DNA of 55,654 nucleotides from Candidatus Omnitrophota bacterium (GTDB lineage Bacteria; Omnitrophota; Gorgyraeia; Gygaellales; Profunditerraquicolaceae): positions 1 through 55,654 of the forward strand of contig JAPLLV010000054.1 in NCBI GenBank assembly GCA_026387405.1, written 5' to 3'. Positions within the stretch are counted from its first letter, which is position 1. Every line of letters begins with the position of its first letter. This document shows, in pieces, positions 6,797 through 55,049 of this stretch. The notes below the pieces were generated by a model. The model was not told the DNA's origin. It was given only the letters and a program-made list of their open reading frames with translations, and made no database searches. The translations under genes were made by a program, and so were the position numbers.

Positions 6797-6828
6797 TAGT
6801 CGTTGGTCGTTAGTCGTTTGTCGTTGGT
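6797..6828. repeat. Heptamer tandem T(A/G)GTCGT between infB and trpS
   Basis: tagtcgt tggtcgt tagtcgt ttgtcgt; ends 2 nt from the trpS ATG. Confidence 0.9.
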
Positions 6829-6834
6829 TAAGCT

Positions 6835-9090
6835 CTATAATTTTCTCGCTATTTTCTCAATCTCGTAAGCCTCGATAATATCCCCTTCCTGATAACTATT
6901 AAAACCGTTCAGGATAATACCGCACTCAAAACCCTCGGCCACTTCGCGCACATCGTCTTTGAACCGTTTTAAAGAAGAGATGCTGCCTTCAAAAACGACC
7001 TCGCCGTTTCTTACGAGGCTTACCGGCGCCTGACGGGTGATCTTACCCTTGGTAACAAAACATCCGGCCACCGTGCCCCAGCGGGAAAGCTTAAGGACTT
7101 TCCTGATCTCCACCCTTCCCAGGAATGTCTTTTTTAGTTTTGGCTCAAGCATACCCTCCAGCGCGGCCTTGATATCATTGGCCAATTCATAAATAATATT
7201 GTATATCTTCAGCTCCACACCTTCTTTGGCGATCAGCGCCTTGGCCTGATCGTCCGCGGTGACATTAAAACCCAGGAGCAGGGCATTGGAGGCTACTGCC
7301 AGGATCACATCCGAAGAATTAATCCCTCCCACCCCTTCATGGATAAAATCGATCTTTATTTCGGAAATATTCATTTTTGCCAGTGTATCTTTGATCGCCC
7401 CCAGCGACCCCTGGACATCGACCTTGAGGATCAGTTTTAACTCTTTTAATTTGCCTTCTTTGATCTGGGTATGGAGATCTTCCAAGCTTATCCTCTTTAT
7501 GGGTTGAGTATCAAGCTGCCTTTGCTGTTCCCGGCGCTTCTCTATGATCTGCCTGGCTATTTTTTCGTCTTCGATGACGAAGAACTGTTCTCCTGCCAGA
7601 GGCACTCCTGATAAACCCAGGACCTCAACCGGGAATGCCGGCCCGGCCTCGGGCACACCCTGGCCCCGGGCATTTAACATGGCCCTGATCTTACCGGAAT
7701 ACCGGCCTACGATGATATATTCATTCAGATGCAGGGTGCCGTTTTGCACCAGAAGCGTTGCCACCGGCCCCTTGCCTTTGGAAAGCCTGGCCTCGATCAC
7801 TACGCCCTTGGCCAGCCTTTTGGGATTCGCCTTTAATTCCAGCATCTGGGCCTCAAGCAGGATCATATCCAATAAATTATCGATCCCCTCTCCTGTCTTT
7901 GCCGAAACCGGGGCAACAATAGTCTTACCTCCCCAGTCCTCTGCCAAAAGGTCCAGCTCCGCGAGCTGCTTCTTGACCCTGTCTACATCCGCCTGCGGCT
8001 TATCCACTTTATTCATAGCCACCATGATAGTCACGCCGGCGGCGCGGGCATGGTCAATGGCCTCGCGCGTCTGCGGCATCACCCCGTCATCCGCGGCTAC
8101 CACCAATATAACTATATCGGTGACGCCGGCTCCGCGCGCGCGCATGGCCGTAAATGCCTCATGGCCCGGCGTATCCAGGAAGGTGATCTCGCCGTTCTTA
8201 AACTTTACCCTATAGGCGCCGATATGCTGGGTTATGCCGCCGTGTTCCGAATCGGCCACTTTAGTCTTTCTTATCGCATCCAAAAGCGAAGTCTTACCGT
8301 GGTCAACGTGGCCCATAAAGGTCACGATGGGAGGCCTGGGCAGCAGGGAGGCCGCGCTATCCGGCTGCTCATGGGCGCCTAACAGCTGTTGCTCTACGTC
8401 AGGAGCAGGCCTGACCGAATAATTAAATTTAGCGCATATAGACTTTACCGCTTCCTCGTCAAGCGTCTGGTTGATAGTTACCATCACCCGCATATCCATC
8501 AGGATCTTGATCAGGCTTGAAGGTTTTTCCTGTAATCGTATAGCCAGGTCCTTAACAGTAATAGGCAGCTTGATCTCGATTTCCTTTGTGGGCGCGGTAA
8601 CCGGCTTTGCCGCCGGAGGCAAAGGAGGCGCGGGCACTTCCGTTTTCTTAGGAGGAACTTCCGCTTTTTTAGGAGGAACGGGTACCGGCTTGGGGATAAC
8701 AGCAGCCCTGCCTTGAGGCTGTACCGGCGTTGGTTTAACTTGCTCCACAACGGGGATCACGGGTGGAACCGGGAGAATACGGGCTGCTTCATGCGCGGGC
8801 TTTTTCTGAAGCTCGGGTTTTTTTATCGGCGTTTCTTTTTTCTTTGCCACGTTAGAGAAAACCACGTGACCTTTTAGAAGACGCGATTCTCTAACGGGGT
8901 TTGCCGCCGGTTTTAAGACAGGCTTAGCCGGCTTTACCAATTGCTTCTCGGGCTTAAGCCTATGCGCTGTTTTCTTGCCCGGTCTGACCTTGGCCTTAAT
9001 AACAGGTAACGCCTTTTTTCCGCCTCCGGCGGAAGCTGTCAGTTTATTTTTTTTCGGAGATTGTGACTTTTCTTTTTTTACGGTTTTCAT
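6835..9090 (-). CDS. infB: Translation initiation factor IF-2 with Lys/Pro-rich N-terminus
   Basis: PRPPIVTFMGHVDHGKTSLLD, GGITQHIGAY, DTPGHEAF, NKVD, SLKRFKDDV; start chosen by SD spacing (9096 and 9105 also possible). Confidence 0.98.
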   Translation of the reverse strand: MKTVKKEKSQSPKKNKLTASAGGGKKALPVIKAKVRPGKKTAHRLKPEKQLVKPAKPVLKPAANPVRESRLLKGHVVFSNVAKKKETPIKKPELQKKPAHEAARILPVPPVIPVVEQVKPTPVQPQGRAAVIPKPVPVPPKKAEVPPKKTEVPAPPLPPAAKPVTAPTKEIEIKLPITVKDLAIRLQEKPSSLIKILMDMRVMVTINQTLDEEAVKSICAKFNYSVRPAPDVEQQLLGAHEQPDSAASLLPRPPIVTFMGHVDHGKTSLLDAIRKTKVADSEHGGITQHIGAYRVKFKNGEITFLDTPGHEAFTAMRARGAGVTDIVILVVAADDGVMPQTREAIDHARAAGVTIMVAMNKVDKPQADVDRVKKQLAELDLLAEDWGGKTIVAPVSAKTGEGIDNLLDMILLEAQMLELKANPKRLAKGVVIEARLSKGKGPVATLLVQNGTLHLNEYIIVGRYSGKIRAMLNARGQGVPEAGPAFPVEVLGLSGVPLAGEQFFVIEDEKIARQIIEKRREQQRQLDTQPIKRISLEDLHTQIKEGKLKELKLILKVDVQGSLGAIKDTLAKMNISEIKIDFIHEGVGGINSSDVILAVASNALLLGFNVTADDQAKALIAKEGVELKIYNIIYELANDIKAALEGMLEPKLKKTFLGRVEIRKVLKLSRWGTVAGCFVTKGKITRQAPVSLVRNGEVVFEGSISSLKRFKDDVREVAEGFECGIILNGFNSYQEGDIIEAYEIEKIARKL

Positions 9091-11080: not shown

Positions 11081-12322
11081 TTAGCGTATATGTTTTAGTA
11101 TGTCTTCCTTATCTCCGGTAATTTTCTTGTTTTCCCTGCGGAATTTCAACTCCAGGTTTCCTGTTTTTAGGAATTCCTTGCCGATGATAATCTCCAGAGG
11201 TATCCCCAAGAGGTCCGCGTCTTTAAACTTGACCCCGGCGCGTTCATCCCGGTCATCAAGCAGGGCCTGCACGCCTGCATTATTTAATTCCTGATATACG
11301 GCGTGCGCGCACCCGGAAATTTTTTCGTCGGTGATATCCAGCGGGACCACGATCACCCGGTATGGGCTTACTTCGTCCGGCCAGATGATCCCCGCATCAT
11401 CGTGATTCTGTTCAATGACAGCCGAGATCAATCTTGAAACCCCGATACCGTAACAACCCATTATAATGGGTTGGAGCTTCCCGCTTGCGTCAAGAAAGTT
11501 TGCCCCAAGGCTTGAGGAATATTTTGTCCCCAATTGGAATATATGCCCTATCTCAACGGTGTTGGTCACAACGAGCGCCTCGTTACATTTAGGGCAGAGT
11601 TTTTTATCCGCGACTTCTTCTTTGTAAGGCAGGGCACAATGGCACTTTGGGCACGCCAGGACTACATCTTCGCCGCTTTCAGTAGGAACCATGAATTCAT
11701 GGGAAACACTGCCTCCCATCACCCCTGCATCGGCCTCAACTACCAGGAAATCCAGGCCCATGCGGCCGAATATCCGGTTGTAGGCGGCAAGCATTATTTT
11801 ATAATTTTTCTCCAACCCCTCCTGGTCCCGGTCAAAACTATAGGCGTCCTTCATCACGAATTCACAGGCCCTCACCGGACCGAAACGCGGGCGGAGCTCA
11901 TCGCGGAATTTTGTCTGTATCTGATAAAGAACCAGGGGCAGCTGCTTGTAAGAAGAAACGTGGCCTTTTACCAGGTCCGTAATGACCTCTTCGTGCGTGG
12001 GCCCCAGGCAGATCTTCCTGCCCCTGCGGTCGGTAAACCTGATCATGGTTTCCCCGAGGTCTTTATCACGCCCGGTCTTGAGCCACAACTCCAAAGGCTG
12101 CAGCGCAGGCAATAACAATTCCGCCGCACCGCTGGAATCCATTTCCTGGCGGATGATATTCTCGATATTGTTCAACACCCTTAGACCCAGAGGAAGATAC
12201 GTATAAACCCCGGACATAAGCATACGCATAAGCCCTGCCCTGAGTAGGAGCTTATGGCTTATCGAATCCGCTTCCTGGGGGGCCTCTTTTAATGTAGGGA
12301 TAAAAGTCTTAGTCCAGAGCAT
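11081..12322 (-). CDS. proS: Prolyl-tRNA synthetase, short form without INS editing domain
   Basis: LGPTHEE, YQIQTKFRDELRPRFG, EFVMKDAYSF, EIGHIFQLG, MGCYGIGVSR, GVKFKDADLLG. Confidence 0.97.
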   Translation of the reverse strand: MLWTKTFIPTLKEAPQEADSISHKLLLRAGLMRMLMSGVYTYLPLGLRVLNNIENIIRQEMDSSGAAELLLPALQPLELWLKTGRDKDLGETMIRFTDRRGRKICLGPTHEEVITDLVKGHVSSYKQLPLVLYQIQTKFRDELRPRFGPVRACEFVMKDAYSFDRDQEGLEKNYKIMLAAYNRIFGRMGLDFLVVEADAGVMGGSVSHEFMVPTESGEDVVLACPKCHCALPYKEEVADKKLCPKCNEALVVTNTVEIGHIFQLGTKYSSSLGANFLDASGKLQPIIMGCYGIGVSRLISAVIEQNHDDAGIIWPDEVSPYRVIVVPLDITDEKISGCAHAVYQELNNAGVQALLDDRDERAGVKFKDADLLGIPLEIIIGKEFLKTGNLELKFRRENKKITGDKEDILKHIR

Positions 12323-12327
12323 AAGTT

Positions 12328-12371
12328 AGCAAATGGCAAATGGCAAATGGCTAATAGCGAATAGCAAATAG
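12328..12371. repeat. Heptamer tandem (A/G)GCAAAT / AGCGAAT between ispG and proS
   Basis: Direct reading; ends 5 nt from the proS ATG. Confidence 0.9.
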
Positions 12372-12383
12372 AAAAAACTATAG

Positions 12384-13481
12384 CTAGCGCCGTTGTTCCT
12401 TTCTTATTTCTCTAACAATCTCATCTATGCAATTATGAATGGCGATTTTCCGTACCGGTTTCCCCTTTTTAAATAATAACCCGCTTCCCCTCCCAAAAGC
12501 GATACCTATATCTGCCTGTTTGGCCTCGCCCGGGCCGTTAACCACGCAACCCATGAGAGCTATCTTTAGCGATTTCTTGGTCGTTGGTCGCTGGTCGCTA
12601 GTCGCTGGTCGCTGGTCGTTAGTCGTTAGTTTATCCTCTAAATCTTTAACCACGCGTATCAGGTCCACTTCGCAGCGGCCGCAGGTAGGGCAACTTATGA
12701 TCTCATGCCCGAAATGACGCAAGCCCAAACTCTCCAATATGGCCCTAGCCGCTAAGACCTCCTGCAGCGGATCATCGGTCAGGGAGACCCTGAGCGTATC
12801 GCCTATCCCTTCGGATAGTAAAATTCCCAAGGCGACACTGGATTTAATCGCGCCCTGCCTCGGCAGGCCGGTGGCCGTAACCCCCAGGTGCAGCGGGTAT
12901 TCACACTCTTTGGCAATCCGGCGATAGGCATCGATCGTATCCCATACTGTTGAGCCCTTTAGCGAAATCACAATATCGTAAAATTTAAGCTTTTCTATTC
13001 TCTTAATATAATCGAGGCAGCTGCGGACCAGCTTCTGCGGCATGCTCAACTTCCTTGAGCCCAGGCCGCGGACAGAGCCGGAATTCAATCCTACGCGCAG
13101 GGGGATCCCGGCGTCTTTCAAGGCGCTGATCACAAACTTCAGCTCATTATCTTTATAAATATTCCCCGGGTTCAGCCTTATCTTATCCGCGCCGCTCTCA
13201 ATAGCCTTGATTGCCAGGCGCCAGTTGAAATGGATATCCGCCACAAGCGGCAGGGATATATCCTGTTTGATCTTCTTAATGGCTAACGCGTCTGACGCGT
13301 CTTTTACCGCCACCCTGACGATCTCACAACCGGCAGCCTGCAAACTCTTTATCTGGCTTACCGTATCCGCCACATCGGCAGTCCTTGTCTTGGCCATGGA
13401 CTGCACGGCTAGGGGGTAGTTACCGCCGATATAAACCTTGCCTATTTTTACTACCCTGGCTTTACGCCTGATTATTTTCAT
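12384..13481 (-). CDS. ispG: 4-hydroxy-3-methylbut-2-enyl diphosphate synthase (flavodoxin) IspG
   Basis: VQSMAKT, PLVADIHF, RLNPGNI, GIGDTLRVSLT, ISCPTCGRC, MGCVVNGPGEA; start set at MKIIRR. Confidence 0.98.
   Translation of the reverse strand: MKIIRRKARVVKIGKVYIGGNYPLAVQSMAKTRTADVADTVSQIKSLQAAGCEIVRVAVKDASDALAIKKIKQDISLPLVADIHFNWRLAIKAIESGADKIRLNPGNIYKDNELKFVISALKDAGIPLRVGLNSGSVRGLGSRKLSMPQKLVRSCLDYIKRIEKLKFYDIVISLKGSTVWDTIDAYRRIAKECEYPLHLGVTATGLPRQGAIKSSVALGILLSEGIGDTLRVSLTDDPLQEVLAARAILESLGLRHFGHEIISCPTCGRCEVDLIRVVKDLEDKLTTNDQRPATSDQRPTTKKSLKIALMGCVVNGPGEAKQADIGIAFGRGSGLLFKKGKPVRKIAIHNCIDEIVREIRKEQRR
12578..12630. repeat. Heptamer tandem T(G/A)GTCG(C/T) x7.5 in-frame within ispG
   Basis: Encodes TTNDQRPATSDQRPTTK. 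Confidence 0.93.
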
Positions 13482-13487
13482 ATTTAC

Positions 13488-13588
13488 TGTCATTGCGAGG
13501 CGCCGCAGGCGCCGAAGCAATCCCGCTTTTAGAGATTACTTCCCGCCACGCTTCGCTCGCGGCTTCGGCTCTGGTCGCTCGCAATGAC
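13488..13588. repeat. GTCATTGCGAG-type palindromic element, copy 3 (expanded)
   Basis: Same 11-bp TIR, with extra internal sequence. Confidence 0.88.
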
Positions 13589-16022: not shown

Positions 16023-16817
16023 TTATTTTAAGATGACGCTCATATAAAAATAAAACGCGGGAGCGGTAAAGATCAGGCTGTCAATGGAGTCCAGGACTCC
16101 CCCTAAGCCCGGAAATATATTACCCGAATCTTTGATCCCGCAGTCGCGCTTCATCATCGATTCCGATAGATCGCCTAACTGCCCCAGCACTGCCAGGGCA
16201 ATGCCGATAAAGAAAAGATGCGAAAAAGCCAGGTTCACAAACCACCTGCAGGCTAATGCCGCCAATACGCTGAATAATAAACCTCCCAAAGCCCCTTCCA
16301 CCGTTTTTTTCGGGCTGATGCGCGGGATAAGCGGGGTCTTGCCCAAACGCGTACCCACCAGATACGCCCCGATATCCCCGAATTTAGTGATCAAGAGCAC
16401 CGCGGACAAAAGGCCTATCCCTCCCTGCAGGTAGCGAATTTTTATTAAAAAACTCATGAACCAGGAAATATACAGTATGCCGAAAATAGTGGTCGAGATA
16501 CCCACTATGGCCCCGGAATTCTGCCTGCGCGTAAACTGCATCATTATCAAGAATACAAGCGCTAAGATTAAAAAAAGCAGCTCCCATCCTTTGGTAGGTT
16601 CAAAACGATAGATGATCGATAAAGGTATAAGCGCCCCTAATCCCAGACCGACGTACTTATATATGCTCAAGCCCTTATACTCAAGCATGGTAAAAAATTC
16701 ATAAAGGCCCAGGACTATAAATGCCGCGGTAATAAGGCTGATCAGCCAATCCACTTGAATGGACGCCACGATCACGGCAATGATAATAGTAGAGCTAATT
16801 ACTCTCTGGAGCAACAT
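16023..16817 (-). CDS. cdsA: Phosphatidate cytidylyltransferase
   Basis: GDIGAYLVG, ISPKKTVEG, GDLSESMMKRDCGIKDSG, GGVLDSIDS. Confidence 0.96.
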   Translation of the reverse strand: MLLQRVISSTIIIAVIVASIQVDWLISLITAAFIVLGLYEFFTMLEYKGLSIYKYVGLGLGALIPLSIIYRFEPTKGWELLFLILALVFLIMMQFTRRQNSGAIVGISTTIFGILYISWFMSFLIKIRYLQGGIGLLSAVLLITKFGDIGAYLVGTRLGKTPLIPRISPKKTVEGALGGLLFSVLAALACRWFVNLAFSHLFFIGIALAVLGQLGDLSESMMKRDCGIKDSGNIFPGLGGVLDSIDSLIFTAPAFYFYMSVILK

Positions 16818-17526
16818 CGACCCTCCCGAATCTGCGTTCCCTTTTCTGGTACACCCTGATAGCCGCTTCCAGGTCTTTATTCGTAAAATCCGGCCAGTAT
16901 TTCCCGAGAAAAAATAATTCCGCGTAGGAAAGCTGCCAGAGCAGGAAATTGCTCAGGCGCATCTCTCCGCTGGTGCGGATCAATAAATCCGGGTCCGGCA
17001 GACCAACGGTATAAAAATAATCGCTAAAATTTTCTTCATTAAGGCTGTTGATATCTATTTCTCCACCGGCTACGCTGCGGGCAAATTTCTTGGCCGCGTC
17101 GACTATCTCCTGGCGGCTGCCGTAATTTAAAGCCAGGACCAGGGTCAAGCCGGTATTGCGGCTGGTTAACGCCTGCGCTTTTTTCATCTTTTCCTGCAGG
17201 TATCGCGGCAGTGGGTCCTGCCTTCCTATAAACAATAACCTGATGTTATTGCTCACTAATTCCTTTATCTCGCGGTCAAGGAAGTTATCCAGGTAACGCA
17301 TGAGCATGCTTATCTCTGATTTAGGCCTATCCCAGTTCTCGGCAGAGAAGGCAAAAAGGGTCAATGCCTCAAGCCCAATTTCAGACGAGAACCTTATGAT
17401 CTCCTTCACTACCTTGGTACCCTGGCGATGCCCGTAAGTGCGGCCCCGGCCCCTCTCTTTTGCCCAGCGGCCGTTTCCGTCCATGATTATCGCGATATGG
17501 CGGGGAATGTTATTATTATCGATCAC
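16795..17526 (-). CDS. uppS: Undecaprenyl diphosphate synthase
   Basis: HIAIIMDGNGRWA, FSAENWDRP, PDLLIRTSGEMRLSNFLLWQ, RERRFG. Confidence 0.98.
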   Translation of the reverse strand: MIDNNNIPRHIAIIMDGNGRWAKERGRGRTYGHRQGTKVVKEIIRFSSEIGLEALTLFAFSAENWDRPKSEISMLMRYLDNFLDREIKELVSNNIRLLFIGRQDPLPRYLQEKMKKAQALTSRNTGLTLVLALNYGSRQEIVDAAKKFARSVAGGEIDINSLNEENFSDYFYTVGLPDPDLLIRTSGEMRLSNFLLWQLSYAELFFLGKYWPDFTNKDLEAAIRVYQKRERRFGRVDVAPESN

Positions 17527-17528
17527 GT

Positions 17529-17597
17529 TTTAGCGTTTAGCGTTTAGCGTTTAGCGGATATTTTTTCTAAACGCTATCCGCTCTACGCTATACGCTA
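17529..17597. repeat. Inverted heptamer arrays (TTAGCGT)n...(ACGCTA)n
   Basis: Fills the whole spacer between the GH57 stop and the uppS GTG. Confidence 0.92.
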
Positions 17598-19181
17598 TTA
17601 CTGGTGCACCCGGTAATCGATCTCCGGGAATATATTATCCTTGTATTCTATATCTTTGAGCCAGGGTTCATCTATATTGTTGGACTTGATCTGCTCATAG
17701 AGGTTGGTAAATCTTAGAAGGTGTTCCTTGGTGCGCCTGACTGCGTACTCCGTGTGCGTGCCGGTGCCCATAATGAATCCCCAGTCCGAGCTCTGCGCCA
17801 ACAACAGTTCCCGCAGGGCCTGGTTAAGCGCGCGTTTGACTATGCCGTTTGTCGTGCCGTTGCGGGAAAAATCCTTTGCCAGTTCTGTCATGCGCTCCGA
17901 GGCCTTATGCAGGTGCCTGTAGACCCAGTCATTGGGCCCTTGCAGCCACATCTCGCTGTAACCCTTCCAGCCCCAGCTGGACATCGAAGGCGTCACCACC
18001 TGATTACGCGGGTTCTCGTAAAGATATTCAGAAGGCGTGATCAGGCGGATCGTATCCTGGTCAAAGTGGATCTTGCGGATCAGGAATTCAAGCCACATCG
18101 GCCCCTCGTACCACCAGTGCCCGAGCAGCTCCGCGTCGTAAGGAGAGATGATTATAGGTTTTTTCTGCATGAAGTCATGCAGATATTCAACCTGCCTCTG
18201 GCGGTTGAACATAAAATTTCCCGCGTGCTCCGCGGCCTTCTCCTGGGCAAGGTGCGGGACGTAGGCCTGCTTGTTGTCGCTTCCGGTGATACGGTAATAT
18301 TTTATCCCGGTATTTATCCTGACGCCGTCGGGATGTATGTAAGGGCGGATGTATTCGTAGTCCAGGTCGAATCCGATATCGCGGTAAAACTCGCGGTACT
18401 GGTAATCCCCCGGATAACCCTCGATAGAAGACCATACCTGCTTTGACGATTCCAGGTCCCTTGCGAAACAGGCCACTCCCGATTTGCAATAGACGGGGGC
18501 GAATACCCCGTATTTCGGGCGGGGCACCCCGTGCAAGATGCCGTGGGCGTCGCTAAAAAAATATTTTAAACCCGCCTCTTTTAATATCTCGTCGTCCCCG
18601 GGGTTATAACCGCACTCGGGAAGCCATATACCCTGGGGTTTTCTCCCCAAGAGGCGCTCATAGTGGCTCACCGCGACTTTTACCTGGGCCCTTACCGACG
18701 GCTTGACCACGTCCATAAGGGGGAGGAACCCGTGGGTGGCCCCGCAGGTGATTATTTCTAATTTTCCGGAGTCCTGAAAACCCTTGAAGGCATTTACCAG
18801 GTTATGGCCGTATTTTTCGAAGGTATTACGGCATTCGTAAAAGCGGACCAGATACACACTGGCCAGATGATTGAACTCCGGCTGCCAGCGCGTCCTCTCC
18901 ACTTCCTTGTGGGCCAGCTCTATGAGCCTGTTTATATGCTTTAAATACCGCTCCTGGAGAAGCCCGTCGGAGAGCATCGACAATAGCGTCGGGGACAAGG
19001 TCAGGGTCAGGCGGAAATCCACCTTATCGTGAGCGAGCCTCTCCATAACATGGATGAGAGGTATATACGTCTCGGTGATCGCCTCGTATAACCAGTCCTC
19101 CTCGAGGAAATCCTCATACTCGGGGTGCCTGACATAAGGAAGATGCCCGTGCAACACTATGCTCAGATAACCTTTATTCAT
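17598..19181 (-). CDS. GH57 glycoside hydrolase / 1,4-alpha-glucan branching enzyme (DUF1957 type)
   Basis: VLHGHLPYV, ETYIPL, CGATHGFLP, GIWLPEC, PYDAELLGHWWYEG, ELLLAQSSDW. Confidence 0.93.
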   Translation of the reverse strand: MNKGYLSIVLHGHLPYVRHPEYEDFLEEDWLYEAITETYIPLIHVMERLAHDKVDFRLTLTLSPTLLSMLSDGLLQERYLKHINRLIELAHKEVERTRWQPEFNHLASVYLVRFYECRNTFEKYGHNLVNAFKGFQDSGKLEIITCGATHGFLPLMDVVKPSVRAQVKVAVSHYERLLGRKPQGIWLPECGYNPGDDEILKEAGLKYFFSDAHGILHGVPRPKYGVFAPVYCKSGVACFARDLESSKQVWSSIEGYPGDYQYREFYRDIGFDLDYEYIRPYIHPDGVRINTGIKYYRITGSDNKQAYVPHLAQEKAAEHAGNFMFNRQRQVEYLHDFMQKKPIIISPYDAELLGHWWYEGPMWLEFLIRKIHFDQDTIRLITPSEYLYENPRNQVVTPSMSSWGWKGYSEMWLQGPNDWVYRHLHKASERMTELAKDFSRNGTTNGIVKRALNQALRELLLAQSSDWGFIMGTGTHTEYAVRRTKEHLLRFTNLYEQIKSNNIDEPWLKDIEYKDNIFPEIDYRVHQ

Positions 19182-19182
19182 A

Positions 19183-19258
19183 TTGGTTAATTAGTTAATT
19201 GGTTAGTGGTTAATTGGTTAGTGGTTAATTGGGGCTACTCACCACTCACCAATTAACC
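19183..19258. repeat. TGGTTAG/TGGTTAAT arrays with inverted ACCA/TTAACC arm
   Basis: Direct reading; ends 1 nt from the GH57 ATG. Confidence 0.88.
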
Positions 19259-19275
19259 GTTCACCTATGGGTTTG

Positions 19276-20283
19276 CTATTTGGTTTCCTTGGTTACTACG
19301 GGTGTGATGGTACGCGTTTCTATTTTATCGGCAGAAGTCGCCTCAACCGGGATTACCTGCTTTCCGTCAGGGAGGGCAAAACGCAAGGTGAATGTCCCGT
19401 CCGATCTTAATTTTATCTCCCTGCCCTGCACCGTAACGGAGGCATCCGGTTCTGTGGCGCCATATACGATAAGTTCGGTATTTACCACCAGCCAGAACTG
19501 CCTGGGTTTAGGAATTTTTTTTGCCGGGCTGCTCATCGAAGCCATGCCCGGAGAAGCCAGGACTCCGGAAAAAAGCGCGCGGCGCATCCTCTCCTGCCAG
19601 ACCTTGCCAACGGGTGAGCTGCGGCCAAATCCAAAACCCATTCCATAAAGCCGGGCGAACATTTCATCGGGGATCATCCACTCTTCATCCGTGATCCAGG
19701 AGGGGCCTTCAAGCGGGGTATAGACGGTATTGGAACGGCTGATCACTATAAATTTACCCGAGGCAAGACGCAGGCCTATCTCCACGCACCAGGACCTGCC
19801 GGGGCCGACATTATCTATATACCAACTGGTAGAGTCAAAACCTACCTCGATATCAAAATACCGGTGCGCGTTCTTCCCATCAAAGGCGATATGACTGACA
19901 TCATAAACCCTTAAGACCACTTTTGCGCTATGAAAACTATCCCCCAGTTCGCGCTGTAACCTATCCCGGGTCCCGCCTGATATCTCCCAATACGAATGCA
20001 GCCACCAGGGGTCCCTCACCTGGAGGACTACCCTGTCCTGGCCGTAACCCGCAGGCAACTCCTGGATAACCCTGGGAATTCCCCTAGGCACAGGCGCAGG
20101 CGTAGAAAACTTGGTCTTACCCACGGCTAGCTCCTGTGTCCCCAAGACGGTATCTTTTTTTCCCAACCGGGAGACTGCCCCTCTTCTGATCTTAAGAGGC
20201 GCGGCTTGCGCGATCTTCTTTTGCTTCTTCTGCCTTGGTATTATCTTTTTTAAACGGTCCTTGATCTTACGCAATAATACCAT
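19276..20283 (-). CDS. DUF4912 domain protein
   Basis: LQVRDPWWLHSYWE, LRVYDV, SRSNTVYTP, ELIVYGATEPDA, FRFALPDG-like C-terminus; usual GH57 neighbour; start set at MVLLRK. Confidence 0.88.
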   Translation of the reverse strand: MVLLRKIKDRLKKIIPRQKKQKKIAQAAPLKIRRGAVSRLGKKDTVLGTQELAVGKTKFSTPAPVPRGIPRVIQELPAGYGQDRVVLQVRDPWWLHSYWEISGGTRDRLQRELGDSFHSAKVVLRVYDVSHIAFDGKNAHRYFDIEVGFDSTSWYIDNVGPGRSWCVEIGLRLASGKFIVISRSNTVYTPLEGPSWITDEEWMIPDEMFARLYGMGFGFGRSSPVGKVWQERMRRALFSGVLASPGMASMSSPAKKIPKPRQFWLVVNTELIVYGATEPDASVTVQGREIKLRSDGTFTLRFALPDGKQVIPVEATSADKIETRTITPVVTKETK

Positions 20284-21743: not shown

Positions 21744-23076
<1,333 letters not shown>

Positions 23077-23077
<1 letters not shown>

Positions 23078-24312
23078 CATGGATTCATGGTGAATATCTT
23101 CTCGGCAATATCGGGATGCTTGGCGATAAACTTCAATTCATCGTCCACAAGCGGCTTTTGATTATGCACATTGGCATAACGCACCAGTTCCAATACGCGG
23201 GAGGCATCCTGATCATCTTTAAAGGCGATCTCCAGCTTATCATACACGTTCCTGAAACCCTTGATCCCGGAATATTCCCCGGCGGTGATCTTGCGGCCGG
23301 TCTCGATGATCTCCGGTTCCCCGCGGCCAAGCTCCTCAAAATCGTAGAGCTCGTAATTACGCCTGTCTTTCAAGGCCCCGTCGGCATGGATGCCGGATTC
23401 ATGCGCAAAGGCATTCGCGCCTATGCCGGGTTGATTGATAGGTATGGGAACCCCAAAGGCATAAGAGGCGTATTTGCAGACCTTCCAGGCCGTCTTAAGG
23501 TTGATCCGTTCATCAAGGGAATAATCCTGCATGCCGTTTCCGTACTTGATAGCCAGGATCACGCTCACCAGGTCCGCGTTTCCCGCGCGCTCCCCCATGC
23601 CGTTCACGCAGGTGTTTATAAAGGCGTCCACCCCGCTGTCTAATGCCGCCCTTGCCCCGGCAATGGAATTTGCCACCACCAGCCCCAGGTCATTATGGCA
23701 ATGTATTTCGATAGGCATATGGGCGGCCTCGCTCAAAAGTTTTATCCGTTCGTAGATACTAAAAGGGGTATCGCAGCCCAGGGTATCGCAATAACGGATG
23801 CGGTCTGCGCCGGCTTCTTTTGCCGCCAGGGAAAACTCGATCAAATAATCCATCTTGGTGCGCGAGGCATCCTCCGCATTCACGCCCAGGGCCTCTGCGC
23901 CGTGTTTTTTTGCCTCATGCACCGCGTCGGCCATCTCATGGATGACCGAGGCATGATCAAGTTTACCCTTAAACTTATGCACGATCATCTGATCGGAAGT
24001 AGAAATGGATAAATTAAGGTATTTTATCTTGGGGACCAATTTAAAGGCGGCGCGCACGTCTTCTTTAGTGGCCCTTATCCAACCACTTAGGCGTATAGGA
24101 GATAAAACCTTGTGCTCCGACAATTCCAGATTGGCGTTTAAGTAATTGGTCTCGTGGCGCGTCACGGGAAAACCAAACTCTGACTGGAATACGCCCATCT
24201 CGTTAGAATAGAGGTTGATCATCGTCTTTTCAAGCTTGGAAAGACAGATACGCGAGGTCTGCACGCCGTCGCGGTTGGTCACGTCGATAATATAAATTTT
24301 AGGTTTTGACAT
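23077..24312 (-). CDS. Homocitrate/isopropylmalate/Re-citrate synthase family (HMGL-like) enzyme
   Basis: DVTNRDGVQ, NAEDASR, YCDTLG, HCHNDLG, GMGERAGNA, AFAHESGIHADG; substrate cannot be decided from sequence; start set at MSKPK (SD GGAG). Confidence 0.85.
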
Positions 24313-24347
24313 CTTTATCTCCCGTATAATATTTGAAGAGTGTTTAA

Positions 24348-24443
24348 TCACCAATAACCAAGATACAATAACCAAACCTGTTTGGAATTTGGTGTTTGGG
24401 TATTGGTTATTGTTTGGTTTTTGGAAATTGGTAATTGGTTATT
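24348..24443. repeat. Inverted degenerate heptamer arrays (ACCAATA / TTGGTTA)
   Basis: Direct reading; follows the upstream stop codon. Confidence 0.85.
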
Positions 24444-24444
24444 T

Positions 24445-26220
24445 TTACTTTTTTAGTATCTTCTTCAGCTCCGCCTTCGACGGAGTACCCTTGGTTGAGA
24501 ATATCTCCTGGTTATCCAGGAGATAGGTCGGGCCGAACATAACCTCGAGTTCCCTTCCAAGCGCAATATTCTGCCGCAGGAGCCTCTTGCCCTCTTCGGA
24601 ACGGGCGCAACCCCTTATCTTCTCGGAGTTATAATTCCCCAGACAATCCTCCCACCAGGAACTGTCGGCGTTCTGGCTGCGGCAGGAGATATAATCCCAG
24701 AATATCTGGGGATAATATTCCTTGACGCAGCAGGCGCGCAGGTCTTCCTCAGCTTCCATCCGGCCGTTCTTGGCGTCAAACCCCTTATTGGTCTCCGTGG
24801 CCAGAAAATGTACCTGCGGCTTAGAATCTTTTATTGCATCAAGGAGCAAAGCGGCATCCTTATCATGCATGCTAAAAAAAAGATCGATCCTTCCGGGGAT
24901 CCTATTCCTGCTCAAGAAAAAGGTCACCCCGGTGAACTGCGGGCGCATCAGGTATACGTCATCTTCCAGCACGAGGTACTGCTTTATTCCTTCAAAAGCC
25001 TTCTCCTGATCTATTTTCTTATCCACTATATAAGCCGGTATCGCCTGAATGCGGAATCTTTTAATTAACCCCCTGGCTTCTTTATCCTTATAATCAAGAT
25101 AGCTGACTACCAGCCCCGGGACTTTATTTTTTAAATAATTGACTACGCTTTCGGTATCCACGAACCGGGAGGATTTCGTGGTTATCACCCGCAGGTTCAC
25201 GTTTGCCGGCTGCGTAAAAACACAGGCAGCCCGCATGGTTGCCGGATTCCGGCAGACCGCCACAAAGCCTTTCTTACTGCAGTCGCCATCCGAAAAACAG
25301 GCCGGCACTACCCCTGCTACGTCCGGGTCATTAGCCACCTGATCAGAAAGGCGGATATTCTCCAGTTTGTAATCCTGTATATGCTGCTTGGCGATCTTTA
25401 AAGTCAATTTACCAAGCTTTCTGCCTTGCCAGATGCCTGCCACTGTTATCGCAGGGCCCAACTTTAAAGCAGATTCATCTTTACGGCTATATCCGCAGAT
25501 CAAGACATCTATGCCCGGAACGGATTTTATGAGGTCGGCGTCAGCGGTCTCGCCTAAACGGCTTAAAAGAATTATCAGATTTACCCCGCGCTTGCGTAAT
25601 TGCGCAACCTGCCCGGAAAGCGCGGCCTTAAGTTCCGTAAATTTAAGCCCCTCGGCCTTGGCCTGCGCCTGCGGCTCGGTTATCGCTATTATTCCTACCT
25701 TAAGCCCGGAAACCTCTTTAACGATATAAGGCTTAAAGGCGCTTGCCGAAACATTACAGGTAAGAAAGGGAAAATTCCTTTTTTGAGCAACTGCTTCAAG
25801 AAAGGCCCTGCCGAAGTTAAACTCTTCCCCGGTTACCGAAACCGCATCATAGCCCATGAGGTCCATTGCTCTAAGGACCACCTCTGTGCGCTCTTTATCC
25901 AACTCGGAGTTCAGGCTGTATTCATCCATGACGCCGCCGGCAAAAAAACCGCCGGCATCCAACAGGAGCGTATCCGGATTATCCTTTTTCAAACGTTTTA
26001 TAAGAGCTGCCCTGCGGGCGAGCCCCCCATCCGGTTCGATCGGACAGTGACAGGGATAAAGCGCTGCGTGGGTATCGCCGGTATAAAGGATCGTAATGTC
26101 TTTGGCATAGGCATTACCAATAAAAACCAAGGCCGCCAAAAAAAAGAACACAACCATCTGCCGCAGACGGCAACGCATATCGCATATCGCATATCGCATA
26201 TCGCAAAACACCTTTATCAT
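24445..26220 (-). CDS. Exported 5'-nucleotidase/UshA-like metallophosphoesterase-fold protein with CxC motif and Cys-rich thioredoxin/GILT-like C-terminus
   Basis: TGDTH, PCHCPIEPDGGLARRA, LLDAGGFF; canonical GNHE replaced by TGEEF; ATGA overlap with the serA stop. Confidence 0.75.
   Translation of the reverse strand: MIKVFCDMRYAICDMRCRLRQMVVFFFLAALVFIGNAYAKDITILYTGDTHAALYPCHCPIEPDGGLARRAALIKRLKKDNPDTLLLDAGGFFAGGVMDEYSLNSELDKERTEVVLRAMDLMGYDAVSVTGEEFNFGRAFLEAVAQKRNFPFLTCNVSASAFKPYIVKEVSGLKVGIIAITEPQAQAKAEGLKFTELKAALSGQVAQLRKRGVNLIILLSRLGETADADLIKSVPGIDVLICGYSRKDESALKLGPAITVAGIWQGRKLGKLTLKIAKQHIQDYKLENIRLSDQVANDPDVAGVVPACFSDGDCSKKGFVAVCRNPATMRAACVFTQPANVNLRVITTKSSRFVDTESVVNYLKNKVPGLVVSYLDYKDKEARGLIKRFRIQAIPAYIVDKKIDQEKAFEGIKQYLVLEDDVYLMRPQFTGVTFFLSRNRIPGRIDLFFSMHDKDAALLLDAIKDSKPQVHFLATETNKGFDAKNGRMEAEEDLRACCVKEYYPQIFWDYISCRSQNADSSWWEDCLGNYNSEKIRGCARSEEGKRLLRQNIALGRELEVMFGPTYLLDNQEIFSTKGTPSKAELKKILKK
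26174..26205. repeat. Heptamer tandem (CGCATAT)x4.5 in the 5' coding region
   Basis: Encodes CDMRYAICDMR. Confidence 0.9.
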
Positions 26221-32865: not shown

Positions 32866-32866
32866 T

Positions 32867-32897
32867 TGGTCGTTGGTCGTTGGTTTTTAGTCGTTAG
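32867..32897. repeat. Heptamer tandem TGGTCGT/TAGTCGT
   Basis: Ends 1 nt from the kdsC ATG. Confidence 0.85.
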
Positions 32898-32915
32898 TAA
32901 AAGCTAAAGCTTGAT

Positions 32916-41865: not shown

Positions 41866-42975
41866 TTACTTATCCCTTCCCGATGCTTTCTTAAGTTTAT
41901 TGAGAAATTCAGGATTAACAGTTTGTCCTAACTCTTCTGCTTTATGTACATCTGCCCAGGCTTTATCATATTCTTTGGCCAAATAATAGATCAAGCCGCG
42001 TTTTTGATAGGTCTCTGCATCGTTAGGGTTAATTGCGATAGCCTTTGTAAGGTCAGAGATAGCTTGAGACAAATTACCTTGGTCAACATAAACAATTCCA
42101 CGGTTGATATAAGCATCTGAACTGTTAGGGTTTATTTCTATGGCCTTGGTATAGTCAGAGACAGCTTCAGATAATTTGCCTTGTTCAGCATAAACAACGC
42201 CGCGGTTGAAAAAGGCATCTCCGCGCTCGGCAACGTCAAGGTTGGAATAGACATCTGCAGGATTAGCGCTTATTTCTATAGCCTTGGTATAGTCAGAGAT
42301 AGCTTGTGCAACATTGCCTTGCTTGTAATAAGCAGTTCCACGAGTATAGTAGGCAGCTGCGTACATAGGATTAATCTCAATAGCTTTAGTATAATCAGGG
42401 GTGGCTTGATACAAGTTACCTTGTTTATCATAAACAACCCCGCGGCTATAATATGGCCCTGCATCGTTAGGGTTTATTTCTATGGCCTTGGTATAGTCAG
42501 AGACAGCTTGGGACAAATTACCTTGGTCAGCATAAGCAATACCACGGTTGTGATATGCCTCCATATAATTAGGATTGATTTTAATGGCCTTGGTATAATC
42601 AGAGATAGCTTGAGCAAGGTTACCTTGCTTATGATAAGCATTACCACTTTGTAAATATCCTTCCACGGTCTCAACATTTGTATTATTCTCTTTTTGAGAT
42701 TCTATTTTGGGCCCTATATCAGAAGCCGTGTTAGGCTTATTAAGAGATGCCGCAGATTTAAAAATTACCTGCTGCCCATCAATAGATTCTACTTCATCCA
42801 TGAAAAGCGTTAAAGGAACTCCATAAAAATCTATCTTTATATACTTATCTGTTTTTTCAATTAACTTGCCTTCCATAGTTTTTCCGGATTTCAAAACAAT
42901 GGTTTCAGCAAAAGATAGAGATGGGAAATACAAGCTAAATACCAGCAACAAAATCACTAACCTTTCCTTCTCCAT
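41866..42975 (-). CDS. Exported tetratricopeptide-repeat protein
   Basis: Signal peptide; six to seven 34-aa repeats (AISDYTKAIEINP), visible as 102-bp DNA repeats. Confidence 0.92.
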   Translation of the reverse strand: MEKERLVILLLVFSLYFPSLSFAETIVLKSGKTMEGKLIEKTDKYIKIDFYGVPLTLFMDEVESIDGQQVIFKSAASLNKPNTASDIGPKIESQKENNTNVETVEGYLQSGNAYHKQGNLAQAISDYTKAIKINPNYMEAYHNRGIAYADQGNLSQAVSDYTKAIEINPNDAGPYYSRGVVYDKQGNLYQATPDYTKAIEINPMYAAAYYTRGTAYYKQGNVAQAISDYTKAIEISANPADVYSNLDVAERGDAFFNRGVVYAEQGKLSEAVSDYTKAIEINPNSSDAYINRGIVYVDQGNLSQAISDLTKAIAINPNDAETYQKRGLIYYLAKEYDKAWADVHKAEELGQTVNPEFLNKLKKASGRDK

Positions 42976-42993
42976 TATTCCTCCATCTCTCCA

Positions 42994-43059
42994 TTAAGAT
43001 AGTGCTGCATGTTTTTTGTATTCGGAAGAACTCAGGTAACCGAGCGTCGAATGCGCCCT
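42994..43059 (-). pseudogene. IS3-family transposase C-terminal relic
   Basis: Manual translation RAHSTLGYLSSSEYKKHAALS* matches the HS.LGY.SP..YE integrase-core tail. Confidence 0.7.
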
Positions 43060-43126
43060 TTTAAACAAAAAGGACTCTGAACGGTTAAGTCCAGCCCATT
43101 GTGGAATTGACTAAAAACAAGTTAAC

Positions 43127-43567
43127 CTATTTATCTCTACCAGAGTCCCCCTTTAACAGTTTGAGGAATTCAGGTTCAATGGTAAGCCCTAATTCTTCTG
43201 CTTTATTTACATCTGCCCAAGCCTTGTCATATTCTTTTGTTTTATAATAGGCACGCCCGCGGCCACGGTAGGCCCCTCCATCATTAGGGTTAATTTCAAT
43301 GGCCTTGGTATAGTCAGAGATGGCTTGAGTAAAGTTGCCTTGTTGAACATAGGCAGACCCACGGAGGTCGTAGGCCATTGCATAATTAGGGTCAATTTTA
43401 ATGGCCTTGGTATAGTCAGAGATGGCTTGAGAATAGTTACCTTTACCGGCATAGAAAAGCCCACGATTAAAATACTCTTCCGCAGTCTCAGCATAGACAG
43501 AAGAAACACTTAAAAATAATATCCCTACTAAAAAAAACATCATTATTCTGGAACTATTGTGCTTCAT
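43127..43567 (-). CDS. Short exported TPR protein, paralog of 41866-42975
   Basis: Signal peptide, three TPRs, shared tail KAWADV.KAEELG...PEFL..LK..SGRDK. Confidence 0.9.
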   Translation of the reverse strand: MKHNSSRIMMFFLVGILFLSVSSVYAETAEEYFNRGLFYAGKGNYSQAISDYTKAIKIDPNYAMAYDLRGSAYVQQGNFTQAISDYTKAIEINPNDGGAYRGRGRAYYKTKEYDKAWADVNKAEELGLTIEPEFLKLLKGDSGRDK

Positions 43568-52882: not shown

Positions 52883-52883
52883 C

Positions 52884-54938
52884 TTAAACTCCTCCTTTCA
52901 AAATTTCTTCTGCCACGTTCAAGACATCTTGCGTGCTTATCGCCTGCATGCACTTGAACTCCCGGACGCAGTTGTGCGCCAGGCATTCAATGCAGCCGAC
53001 GGGCTTATGCAAAAAACGGTCCCTCTTGCCTACCGGACCCCAGCGTTTCGGGCTCAAACCTTTCTGGTCCCTGCCGAATATGGAGATCACCGGCACCCCT
53101 ACTGCCGAGCCGATATGCACCGGCCCGGAATCATTGGAGATGAATAGGCTGCAGCGCGATAACAAGGCCGCCAATTGCGAGAGCGAAAGCCTGCCTGCCA
53201 GATCAATGGCCTTTTCCCGCATATTGGTAATAAGGTCCTGCGCCAAGGGCCTCTCTTTAGGCCCGGCAACTACCAAAACCTTAAAACCGTATCCTTGCGC
53301 CAATCTGTCCGCTACCTCGGCAAATCTTTGCGCCGGCCATATCTTGGAAGGGCAGCTCGCCCCGGGATTGATCGCCAACAGCGCGTCTTTTTCTTTTATA
53401 CCTTCCCGCCTTAACAGTTCGTCTACGGCCTGTATTGCCTCCGATTTTATCGGCACAAAGATATTTTTGTCCGCCGGCGTAATGCCCAAAACTTTGAGCA
53501 GGTCAAAATTATATTCTAATTCGTGCTTTTGGCCGCTTTGTTTAGTATGAGGGATTCTGTCGGTAAGCAAAAAACCGAGCTTGCGGTCATATCCGATCCT
53601 TCTTTTTATCCCTGCCAAAAAAGTCACCAGGTGCACGCGGTTGGTCGGGTGCAGTATAAGCGCCAGGTCAAACCTTTTTTTCTTAAGGTTCCTGGCGAAC
53701 TCTAGAGTCCTGCGCCAGCTCTTATGTTTTGTGTCTTTATCATAGATGATCACTTCATCTAAGTAAGGATTACCTTCAACGATCTCTTTAGTATAAGGGC
53801 TGACCATCATGGCAATGTAGGCGCTGGGATATCTCTCCCGCACTGCCTTTATAACCGGGGTGGATAAAACCACATCCCCTATCCTGTCGGTGCGCACGAT
53901 AAGGATACGCTTTAAATCGGGGACAGTCCCCTTCAAGACCACTGACGGATATAGCTCTGCGGGGACAGTCCCCTTGAGAATATTCCTCACCTGTTTAAGC
54001 ACGTCCTCCACCTGCACCATCTGTATGCATTCCATGCTGTTTAAACGGCACTGCGCTTTTCCGCAGGGCCGGCAGGCAATATCTTTTTTTACAAAGACTG
54101 ACCTGCTTGACCAGGGGCCGTATTTTGCTTCATCGGTGGGCCCGAAGATAGCCACGATCGCGCGGTCCAGGTAACTCGCCAGGTGTAAGATCGCGCTGTC
54201 ATTGGTAACCACAAGGTCCGCCTTCTTTAATAAATACGCGAGTTCGATCAGGCTGGTAGTGCCGGTGAGATCCAGAAGCGGATACCGGCAATGTTCAATA
54301 ATATATTTGGCAATCGCGGAATCATCCTTGTCTCCGATCAAGACTATCTTGGCCTTGAATTCTTCAACCAAAGCCTCGATCAGGCGCGCGAACTTATCCT
54401 GGTTCCATCTTTTGATGTGGCTGCGCGCTCCGGGGGCGATCAAGATGACTTTATCCTTATCGCTTACACCATGATCTTTAAGCTTCTTGTTTATATATTC
54501 CTCTTCCTCGGTCTTCATAGTAATGATCGAAGTGAGGATATTTAAGTTCTGGCTTTTGACTTTTAAATTTTGAATTTTATAAAGATGCCTGTCCTTCATG
54601 TGTTTTATGGACGAGGGGACAAAAGGAAGGAAAGAAACCCGCGCCCTTGCCGGCAGCAGCGCCCCGAAAAAACTATTACGCAAGTCTACCACCAGGTCAA
54701 ACTTCTCTTGGCTTAAGCGCCGGAACAATCTTATCTTCTCTCTTAAGGGTGAGCGCTTATCAAAGATGATCAGACTGTGGATATTCAGGTTATTCTCAAA
54801 TAATTCTTTGGGCCTGGAGCCGCAGATAACGGTGATCTGCGCCGAAGGAAAACTCTGCCTTAAAGTATCTAAGGCCGGCAGGGTCAGGATCACGTCTCCG
54901 ATATTGCTTAAGGTAATAAAAAGAATTTTTTTTATCAT
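52884..54938 (-). CDS. Tandem double-domain GT9 glycosyltransferase (heptosyltransferase II-like)
   Basis: Two GT9 units, each with IGDVxL, NDSxxxH and IFGP/IFGR motifs. Confidence 0.92.
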   Translation of the reverse strand: MIKKILFITLSNIGDVILTLPALDTLRQSFPSAQITVICGSRPKELFENNLNIHSLIIFDKRSPLREKIRLFRRLSQEKFDLVVDLRNSFFGALLPARARVSFLPFVPSSIKHMKDRHLYKIQNLKVKSQNLNILTSIITMKTEEEEYINKKLKDHGVSDKDKVILIAPGARSHIKRWNQDKFARLIEALVEEFKAKIVLIGDKDDSAIAKYIIEHCRYPLLDLTGTTSLIELAYLLKKADLVVTNDSAILHLASYLDRAIVAIFGPTDEAKYGPWSSRSVFVKKDIACRPCGKAQCRLNSMECIQMVQVEDVLKQVRNILKGTVPAELYPSVVLKGTVPDLKRILIVRTDRIGDVVLSTPVIKAVRERYPSAYIAMMVSPYTKEIVEGNPYLDEVIIYDKDTKHKSWRRTLEFARNLKKKRFDLALILHPTNRVHLVTFLAGIKRRIGYDRKLGFLLTDRIPHTKQSGQKHELEYNFDLLKVLGITPADKNIFVPIKSEAIQAVDELLRREGIKEKDALLAINPGASCPSKIWPAQRFAEVADRLAQGYGFKVLVVAGPKERPLAQDLITNMREKAIDLAGRLSLSQLAALLSRCSLFISNDSGPVHIGSAVGVPVISIFGRDQKGLSPKRWGPVGKRDRFLHKPVGCIECLAHNCVREFKCMQAISTQDVLNVAEEILKGGV
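53919..53973. repeat. About 55-bp GGGGACAGTCCCC-bounded element, copy 2, in-frame in the GT9 linker
   Basis: Encodes GTVPAELYPSVVLKGTVP; matches 37782-37835. Confidence 0.9.
54554..54581. repeat. Degenerate heptamer tandem TTTT(G/A)AN x4 in GT9
   Basis: Encodes YKIQNLKVKS. Confidence 0.7.
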
Positions 54939-54942
54939 AATC

Positions 54943-55049
54943 TTAAAGTTAATCCAGGTTAATCTATGTTAAACAATGTTAACCAAAGTTGCTTTTAAAA
55001 CGCAACCTCGGTTAACCTGGGCTAACGTTGATTAACTTTGATTAACCTT
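54943..55049. repeat. Inverted decamer arrays (..GTTAA.. period 10)
   Basis: Five units, a short loop and five inverted units; includes the upstream gene's stop. Confidence 0.85.

Follow-up and report, generated by a model that had tools for sequence, protein, structure and literature searches.

Why should tandem arrays of 7-base units fill the short spacers between bacterial genes and end almost on start codons that show no Shine-Dalgarno (SD) sequence? The question is raised by a 55,654-nucleotide stretch of Candidatus Omnitrophota DNA in which such heptamer arrays precede trpS, proS, uppS, purA and several other genes. This whole stretch, contig C77 of the host genome G000, is called here the window. 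We are presenting an analysis of these arrays in the window, in the whole 1.92 Mb host assembly (84 contigs, 46.7% G+C) and in 30 further genomes of the order (G001-G030), none of them from the genus of the host. We consider it probable that the arrays are the arms of small inserted hairpin elements placed at gene boundaries, that these elements are the gene-less form of cassettes which carry a four-helix-bundle gene and resemble the intervening sequences (IVS) of 23S rRNA, and that the loss of SD sequences is a by-product of their insertion.

Heptamer arrays and hairpins at gene boundaries

All arrays listed in an earlier note on this DNA were recovered by TRF, and the period of seven is a property of the whole genome, in which 252 period-7 rows were obtained against 36 in a 3rd-order Markov simulation (approximately 7-fold). 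Periods 14 and 21 are also in excess over the same simulation, with 64 vs 12 and 17 vs 2 rows, respectively. No genome-wide enrichment was seen for period 10 (71 rows vs 61 simulated), and the class of 10-mer arrays that the note had set beside the heptamers is therefore at chance level; its sole real structure is a decamer hairpin at 54939-55049 (z = -5.8). Among 211 merged period-7 arrays, 122 are intergenic, although intergenic DNA makes up 8.8% of the genome, and the spacers which bear them are short (median 72.5 nt) and mostly filled by the arrays.

Within these spacers the placement is not directed to starts. Compared with uniform placement within the same spacers, 39 arrays against 34 expected lie at most 5 nt from a start codon, and 50 against 34 lie at most 5 nt from a stop codon; start-specific placement was accordingly rejected, stops being touched more often. 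The statement that arrays abut start codons holds for the named genes, with gaps of 0-4 nt in the seven heptamer cases and 9 nt at the GT9 gene, but not as a genome-wide rule, since start proximity is at the uniform expectation. Two arrays of the window lie inside long open reading frames (ORFs) and are apparently translated in frame: (ATTTGCC) x4.6 at 141-172, within ORF 2-685, and (TGGTCGC/TAGTCGC) x6-7 at 12578-12630, within ORF 12384-13520.

A recurring layout is observed directly in co-directional spacers with arrays: the stop codon, a G/T-rich and TAG-bearing arm of 3-5 heptamers, a short A-rich loop, the complementary C/A-rich arm, 0-6 nt, and the start codon. About 35 spacers fold in this form with a minimum free energy (MFE) of -22 to -47 kcal/mol, and their stems consist of 4-6-bp helices with a small symmetric internal loop every 7 nt. 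In the AGCG type the G/T-rich arm is built of TAGCGTA, GAGCGTA, GAGCGGA and TAGCGTT units and the C/A-rich arm of CTAAACG, CTATCCG and CTCTACG. This element stands at about 26 junctions of the host genome (119 overlapping matches to the pattern AGCGNNNAGCGNNNAGCGNNNAG), and at these sites its four word variants (TAT, TAG, GAT, TTT), its arm order and its A-rich loop are constant. The other word families are as follows:

TAGTCGT/TGGTCGT with ACGACTA/ACGACCA (GTCG family), 46 arrays
GGCATAT/AGCATAT types, 31 arrays
AATAACC/TTATTGG, 10 arrays
AACTGTG, 5 arrays

The first TAG of an element often doubles as the stop codon of the upstream gene, and a TAG stop is found upstream at 49% of array-bearing junctions vs 24% elsewhere (p = 3e-6). 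Arms that abut starts have C exceeding G in 27 cases vs 5, and those that abut stops have G exceeding C in 36 vs 6. Single arms keep this orientation, runs of TAGTCGT following stops and being followed by an SD-bearing linker, and runs of ACGACTA leading straight into ATG. Because an inverted repeat is identical on both strands, the orientation rule is intrinsic to a hairpin whose G-arm comes first, and thus it is by itself no proof of selection at the RNA level; single arms would inherit it if they are half-elements.

In the window, where the genes lie on the minus strand nearly throughout, the gene names of the earlier note proved correct by NCBIfam, and the elements before these and other genes are:

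6795..6834, minus strand, 40-nt spacer before trpS (5802-6794, minus): lone C/A-rich arm (ACGACNA) x4.5 at 6797-6828, 2 nt from the ATG at 6794; upstream stop TAG at 6835-6837
12323..12383, minus strand, 61-nt spacer before proS (11081-12322, minus): (GCCATTT/GCTATTN) x7 at 12327-12375, 4 nt from the ATG at 12322
17527..17597, minus strand, GH57-to-uppS spacer (uppS 16795-17526, minus): AGCG-type hairpin filling the spacer, MFE -32.1 kcal/mol
19182..19275, minus strand, 94-nt spacer before the GH57-type branching enzyme gene (17598-19181, minus): (TTAACCA/CTAACCA) reaching the ATG at 19181 and paired with a short GGTGAGT/GGTTAAT arm, MFE -27.8 kcal/mol
23013..23076, minus strand, spacer before purA (21744-23012, minus): AGCG-type hairpin, C-arm (CTATCCG/CTAAACG) 1 nt before the ATG at 23012, MFE -22.8 kcal/mol
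24376..24444, minus strand: 69-nt C/A-rich array (AATAACC/AATTACC type) filling the spacer before a TTG start at 24375
26158..26216, minus strand, spacer before a UshA-like gene: (GCGATAT) x4.6 at 26174-26205, then a small GC hairpin (GCCGTCTGCGGC) abutting the ATG at 26157
32866..32915, minus strand, 50-nt spacer before kdsC (32338-32865, minus): lone C/A-rich arm (ACGACCA/ACGACTA) at 32866-32895, running into the ATG at 32865
54939..55049, minus strand, decamer hairpin before the double heptosyltransferase (GT9) gene (52884-54938, minus): (GGTTAANNNN) x4, loop, (GTTAACNNNN / ATTAACNNNN) x4, MFE -29.1 kcal/mol, z -5.8

The four spacers described earlier as filled by inverted arms do fold as hairpins, with the four energies listed. 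The GH57-uppS element reads in order TAA, (TAGCGTA/GAGCGGA/TAGCGTT) x4, an A-rich loop, (CTAAACG) x4, AC and GTG. In the decamer hairpin the TAG stop of the upstream gene (55022-55024) lies within the 5' arm, and the 3' arm ends 9 nt from the ATG of the GT9 gene. The gene upstream of the purA spacer is isopropylmalate/homocitrate-synthase-like. In a co-occurring strain (a contig of freshwater metagenome run X1, flanks about 95% identical) 97 other letters replace the 93-nt array-bearing spacer 19184-19276. Small GC-rich palindromes were noticed beside or inside heptamer arrays, such as GCCGTCTGCGGC at 26158-26173 of the window and CTGCCGGCAGGCAGG, and also as hairpin centres in L003 and L012.

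The absence of SD sequences before the eight named starts was borne out: the best duplex with the anti-SD has a free energy of at least -3.1 kcal/mol, the anti-SD being the canonical one, assumed for a metagenome-assembled genome (MAG) without a 16S gene in which AAGGAGGTG-type sites are visible before other genes. An SD core motif precedes 10% of the 48 array-abutted starts, vs 34-47% of the starts in every other class and a background of 14% for random positions in coding DNA (Fisher p = 5e-5), and SD-less starts are the majority in this genome even without arrays. Displacement of the SD to a position just before the 5' arm was also considered and is not convincing, as the motif occurs within the final 20 nt of the preceding gene at 6 of 18 filled spacers vs 61 of 297 controls. 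The best reading is that SD absence is a by-product of the inserted elements, because the element takes up the SD window and most genes of this genome have no SD anyway. The earlier idea that the arrays may set SD-independent initiation or coupling stays a conjecture, the arrays being associated with stops no less than with starts. It would also fit an ancestral junction that was translationally coupled.

The host itself is not a cyanobacterium. The best 80 loci for its 527-aa protein encoded at 17598-19181 are almost all from Omnitrophota MAGs (73-85% amino acid identity), and a cyanobacterial origin was ruled out, the close relatives being Omnitrophota. According to our gene calls the genome is extremely co-oriented, with 1495 co-directional neighbour pairs vs 41 convergent and 38 divergent ones; co-directional pairs have a median spacer of 15-18 nt and overlap in 31% of cases. 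At 42022-43454 of the window, units of 102 and 204 nt, equal to 34 and 68 codons, are repeated in tandem within ORFs 41866-42975 and 43127-43567, and the 34-residue period suggests that these encode TPR-like repeat proteins.

Recurrent gain and the four-helix-bundle genes

The history of one junction could be followed in 78 relatives. In most of them GH57 and uppS overlap in a CA(A/G)TGA sequence or are separated by a few bases, while at least 14 of the 78 have inverted heptamer arrays at this very boundary, built from unrelated words (TAGGTGT/ACCTAAA, AGCGTAA, CGTAAAT/GATTACG, AAAGATC, CAGAAAC/TTCTGGT and others); some further relatives have other palindromes there. In every filled junction the GH57 C-terminus is whole (...DYRVHQ), the insert opens with a fresh stop after the last sense codon, and the uppS N-terminus is kept. 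In relative L032 (4579-4590) the spacer consists only of TAGCGTAT before ATG, i.e., one AGCG heptamer unit, which may be either a seed or an excision footprint.

The distribution of the AGCG element is patchy. Pattern matches number 119 in the host genome, 112 in G029, which belongs to another family, 35 in G014 and 11 in G009, and there are none in most relatives, while coding DNA identity among the host and the AGCG-bearing relatives is only about 70%. Such a scattered occurrence and the exactness of insertion favour the acquisition of entire elements over in-situ slippage alone.

A TIGR02436 search of the host genome gave four matches, three of them distinct, and all are bracketed by heptamer arrays:

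C28:41847-42197, four-helix-bundle gene between two tRNA genes, inverted-complement arrays, GGCA/AGCA-family arms
C79:25518-25865, four-helix-bundle gene, inverted-complement arrays, AATAACC/TTATTGG-family arms
C30/C83, four-helix-bundle gene copy, AGCG arms

The C28 and C79 genes occupy the "loop" between inverted arrays, and the arms of the latter belong to the same word family as the array at 24376..24444 of the window. A cognate four-helix-bundle gene is thus present in the assembly for three of the five word families. The C28 cassette (C28:41700-42330), lying between two tRNA genes, resembles an IVS in a stable-RNA operon.

In the 30 relatives 44 further TIGR02436 matches were found in 18 genomes; inverted heptamer arms co-oriented with the host operon flank at least 18 of about 26 intact copies, as well as most of 16 more. 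In a maximum-likelihood tree of 28 proteins the copies group by arm word and not by host family:

G029, G023 and G000 (G024 nearby), arm word AGCG
G011 and G013, arm word GTAGATA/GTAGGTA
G010 and G024, arm word TAGTCTA/TAGTCGA
G012 and G014, arm word TAGTAAC
G003, G024 and G026, arm word AAGTTAT/AATTATA
G010 and G000, arm word GCGATAT/GGCATAT

The association extends to other phyla. A tblastn search of plasmids with the four-helix-bundle protein gave matches mostly in Nostocales, and among nine inspected loci of distant homologues (eight on plasmids and one on a chromosomal contig of the candidate phyla radiation) eight are flanked on either side by heptamer arrays, which are mostly inverted. 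These come from Anabaena, two Nostoc, Aulosira, Leptolyngbya, Pseudanabaena, Riemerella and Liptonbacteria, so that cyanobacteria, Bacteroidota and the candidate phyla radiation are represented; the ninth, a Calothrix plasmid copy, has no arrays. The Candidatus Liptonbacteria copy (L121 1495-1870), situated between the ATP-synthase beta and epsilon genes, is 66% identical to the C28 gene and has GGCTAAT/AAGCCAT-type arms, which implies transfer between phyla. Structure matches for the protein are 2GSC, a pentamer from Xanthomonas, and 2RLD.

The association with TIGR02436-type genes, which the earlier note had proposed as a check, is therefore positive in the host, in relatives and in other phyla. 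Its proposal that the arrays are footprints of a repeat-generating or mobile process gains support from this link, from the repeated filling of one junction with differing words and from the spread of AGCG elements across families. We found no literature on TIGR02436/PF05635 genes with dispersed heptamer arrays at operon junctions, the nearest being the Coxiella IVS paper discussed below.

Two kinds of candidate mobiliser were considered, and no evident DNA-moving enzyme emerged. A link to reverse transcriptases or diversity-generating retroelements through Avd-like proteins was rejected, as the genome gave no RVT_1 match. Four Y1_Tnp (RAYT/IS200-like) genes are present, each with its own inverted GC-rich REP-like flanks:

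C80:29651-30142, Y1_Tnp gene
C40:14235-14732, Y1_Tnp gene
C6:49489-50160, Y1_Tnp gene
C6:54660-55295, Y1_Tnp gene

These flanks, of which GAACTGTCCCCC...GGGGGGGACAGTTC is an example, are unrelated to the heptamer arrays, and the one period-7 array found within 1.5 kb of any Y1_Tnp gene stands at a distance of about 1.2 kb from the C80 copy, which it does not flank. RAYT was therefore rejected as mobiliser of the heptamers.

Possible mechanism and competing explanations

If the arrays are arms of inserted elements, each element would be a hairpin with inverted arms of 3-6 heptamers (in one case of decamers) that inserts exactly between consecutive co-directional genes, at junctions formerly overlapping or abutting in the CA(A/G)TGA manner. 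Its 5' G/T-rich arm would start at the upstream stop, often supplying it, and its 3' C/A-rich arm would end 0-5 nt before the next start. In the cassette form a TIGR02436/PF05635 gene would sit in the loop between like arms, each protein clade having its own heptamer word. As to expression, the folded stem would bring the upstream stop and the downstream start side by side, a ribosome terminating at the stem base would open the lower stem and free a G-poor, A/C-rich unstructured leader, and the downstream cistron would then be read by SD-independent (re)initiation, by which the coupling of the ancestral overlap would be preserved.

The arrays are transcribed. Metatranscriptome contigs of 100% identity cross the arrays at 12327-12375 (X15 contig, 12279-12453) and 24379-24446 (X12 contig, 24303-24556), and these two arrays are therefore co-transcribed with both of their neighbours; the evidence consists of assembled contigs, which cannot show RNA ends. 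The earlier suggestion of mRNA processing is unlikely in so far as it would involve RNase III, the gene of which was not found in the host or in the 30 relatives: TIGR02191 has no match in G000, PF14622 has none in the 31 genomes of the order, of which 16 reach a completeness of 90% or more, and six-frame translation gave no ERLEFLGD-type motif. It would be unusual for bacteria if an entire order had lost rnc. Missing RNase III may let long stems build up inside operons without the mRNA being cut. No T-run follows the array stems.

Several observations weigh against the account of inserted elements. No transposase, target-site duplication or observed movement was found for them, and many arrays are lone arms rather than hairpins. 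Nothing in the data points to a role of the structure at the RNA level as opposed to the DNA level, as the array hairpins have no G.U excess and the sense strand is the more stable in 29 cases vs 23 for the antisense strand; in array-less spacers the sense strand is the more stable in 205 vs 109. The large GTCG family (46 arrays) has no cognate gene in the host assembly, and no four-helix-bundle gene was detected in G007 (64% complete), which has 17 GTAG-type matches, or in G021 (90% complete), which has arrays of two words. We infer both that the elements move and that the downstream genes are translated by coupling, and the latter, being purely inferential, also counts against the account.

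What the arrays do, if anything, can be conceived in other ways. They could be cis-acting translation signals of the kind proposed for the TAACTGA repeats of Beggiatoaceae, the C/A-rich run before the start recruiting ribosomes without an SD through S1 or a dedicated heptamer-binding protein. This would agree with the C/A-rich orientation at starts (27 vs 5), with the reliance of essential genes (trpS, proS, uppS, purA) on array-abutted starts, with transcription of the arrays and with the 10% share of SD among abutted starts, equal to that in the repeat-bearing intergenic regions of BOGUAY (PMC4679880). We regard it as unlikely, since proximity to starts is only uniform (39 vs 34) and stops are touched more often, the junction concerned is free of arrays in most relatives and filled with unrelated words in the others, like arms bracket a gene in the cassettes, and the orientation rule is automatic if lone arms are halves of G-arm-first hairpins. 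An RNA-processing or stability function, in which a double-strand RNase would cleave the stems, as happens in the 23S IVS and T7 early mRNA, or the stems would act as REP-like 3' protectors or terminators that define cistron ends, appears very improbable. In its favour are the length of the stems, their exactly intercistronic position and the Coxiella IVS, in which RNase III cleaves the heptamer stem at its first repeat (PMC4990558), but here RNase III was not found by either model or by the motif, the stems are not followed by a T-run and have no sense-strand or G.U signal, and RNA contigs run through two arrays.

It is also quite unlikely, in our judgement, that the arrays are locally born simple-sequence repeats which never move, slippage having expanded a seed heptamer beside the stop and intrastrand template switching having made the inverted arm. 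Differing words at one junction in different genomes, the single TAGCGTAT between stop and start in L032, the variation of unit number among Coxiella strains (PMC4990558) and the known over-representation of heptamers among long simple-sequence repeats in bacteria (cited in PMC4692102) are all in keeping with such an origin. On the other side, the AGCG variants, arm order and A-rich loop are constant at about 26 sites, and a second genome, from another family, has more than 100 pattern matches; the protein clades agree with the words irrespective of host family; and slippage alone gives no reason for exact landing on gene boundaries. Inserted hairpin elements thus remain the explanation we prefer. 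A bolder version of it, which we put forward tentatively and hold to be possible rather than likely, makes the PF05635/TIGR02436 ("23S-IVS protein") pentamers sequence-specific partners of the heptamers, each lineage recognising its own 7-nt word and promoting the spread or maintenance of hairpins made of it; gene-less arrays would then be non-autonomous copies of the cassettes that carry a gene, and in this lineage, apparently without RNase III, the hairpins would also enforce strict translational coupling of the cistron downstream.

Significance and comparison with known systems

Among the long simple repeats of bacteria, heptamers are the one class with a known excess, and where they come from has been a question since the STRR repeats were described in 1990. 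In the host genome, heptamer hairpins without a gene stand at dozens of operon junctions, other copies carry a gene between arms of the same words, and the protein phylogeny tracks the words, which makes a protein-repeat system testable. The most interesting outcome is that heptamer words and lineages of four-helix-bundle genes may be cognate to each other, and through the gene-bearing cassettes this would link the unexplained excess of bacterial 7-base repeats to one protein family. If the proteins are indeed cognate partners, the system would be REP/RAYT-like with a protein of non-enzymatic or novel activity, and it would account for the long-noted heptanucleotide repeat excess (STRR, TAACTGA and others) across bacterial phyla. 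The starts of trpS, proS, uppS and purA, at the foot of a 25-30-bp stem and without SD, offer a natural setting in which to test coupling and initiation independent of an SD. In practice, the elements break assemblies, supply stop codons and can mislead start-codon calling in MAGs.

The STRR heptanucleotide repeats of heterocystous cyanobacteria, reportedly described by Mazel and co-workers in 1990, were the comparison drawn in the earlier note. It holds for the type of repeat, both being dispersed, mostly intergenic tandem heptamer arrays with several word families per genome, but not for the host, which is no cyanobacterium, nor for the words. Those found here (TAGCGTA, TAGTCGT, GGCATAT, AATAACC) differ from the canonical STRR1-3 words. 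Neither the stop-to-start hairpin architecture nor the gene link is known to be part of the STRR description. Nostocales plasmids have such arrays around four-helix-bundle genes. STRR repeats have been used as fingerprinting targets (PMC5088731).

The TAACTGA repeats of marine Beggiatoaceae (MacGregor 2015, PMC4679880) comprise 2-6 tandem heptamers that point toward the start, and most often about 1 nt separates their end from it. They overlap the ribosome-binding site, with SD in only about 10%, precede essential genes in an SD-poor genome, and have been proposed to play a role in translation. Start-oriented heptamers before starts without a ribosome-binding site are common to both systems, with gaps of 0-4 nt at seven window genes here. 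In contrast to the one word (related heptamers being rarely repeated) and only one inverted repeat reported there, the Omnitrophota arrays fall into at least five word families, and about 35 of the hairpins are inverted pairs; the phylum differs as well, and the four-helix-bundle link is not reported for TAACTGA.

The nearest relative that has been examined by experiment is the 23S IVS of Coxiella burnetii (Warrier et al. 2016, PMC4990558). Its ORF belongs to the same family and has a poor SD, its terminal stem is 28 bp long, and its GACAGAT heptamers vary in number among strains; RNase III excises it at the first repeat, and it is regarded as selfish. The Coxiella and Leptospira 23S IVS share with the cassettes described here (three loci in the host, and those of relatives) a PF05635/S23p ORF in a stem loop with tandem heptamers. 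Unlike them, the window elements have no ORF in the loop and most copies are gene-less. The IVS of 23S rRNA lie in its helix 25 or 45, those of the Coxiella comparison in helix 45, whereas the window elements lie between protein-coding genes and one host cassette lies between tRNA genes, and excision by RNase III there contrasts with a host apparently without this enzyme here.

REP/REPIN sequences with their RAYT transposase (Bertels and Rainey 2011, PMC3116915) are short dispersed extragenic palindromes. As in the cassettes, a master gene is flanked by its own inverted repeats, with one repeat family per gene lineage, but here the arms are tandem heptamers and not a unique palindrome, and the flanked gene encodes a 120-aa four-helix bundle of no known catalytic activity in place of a Y1 transposase.

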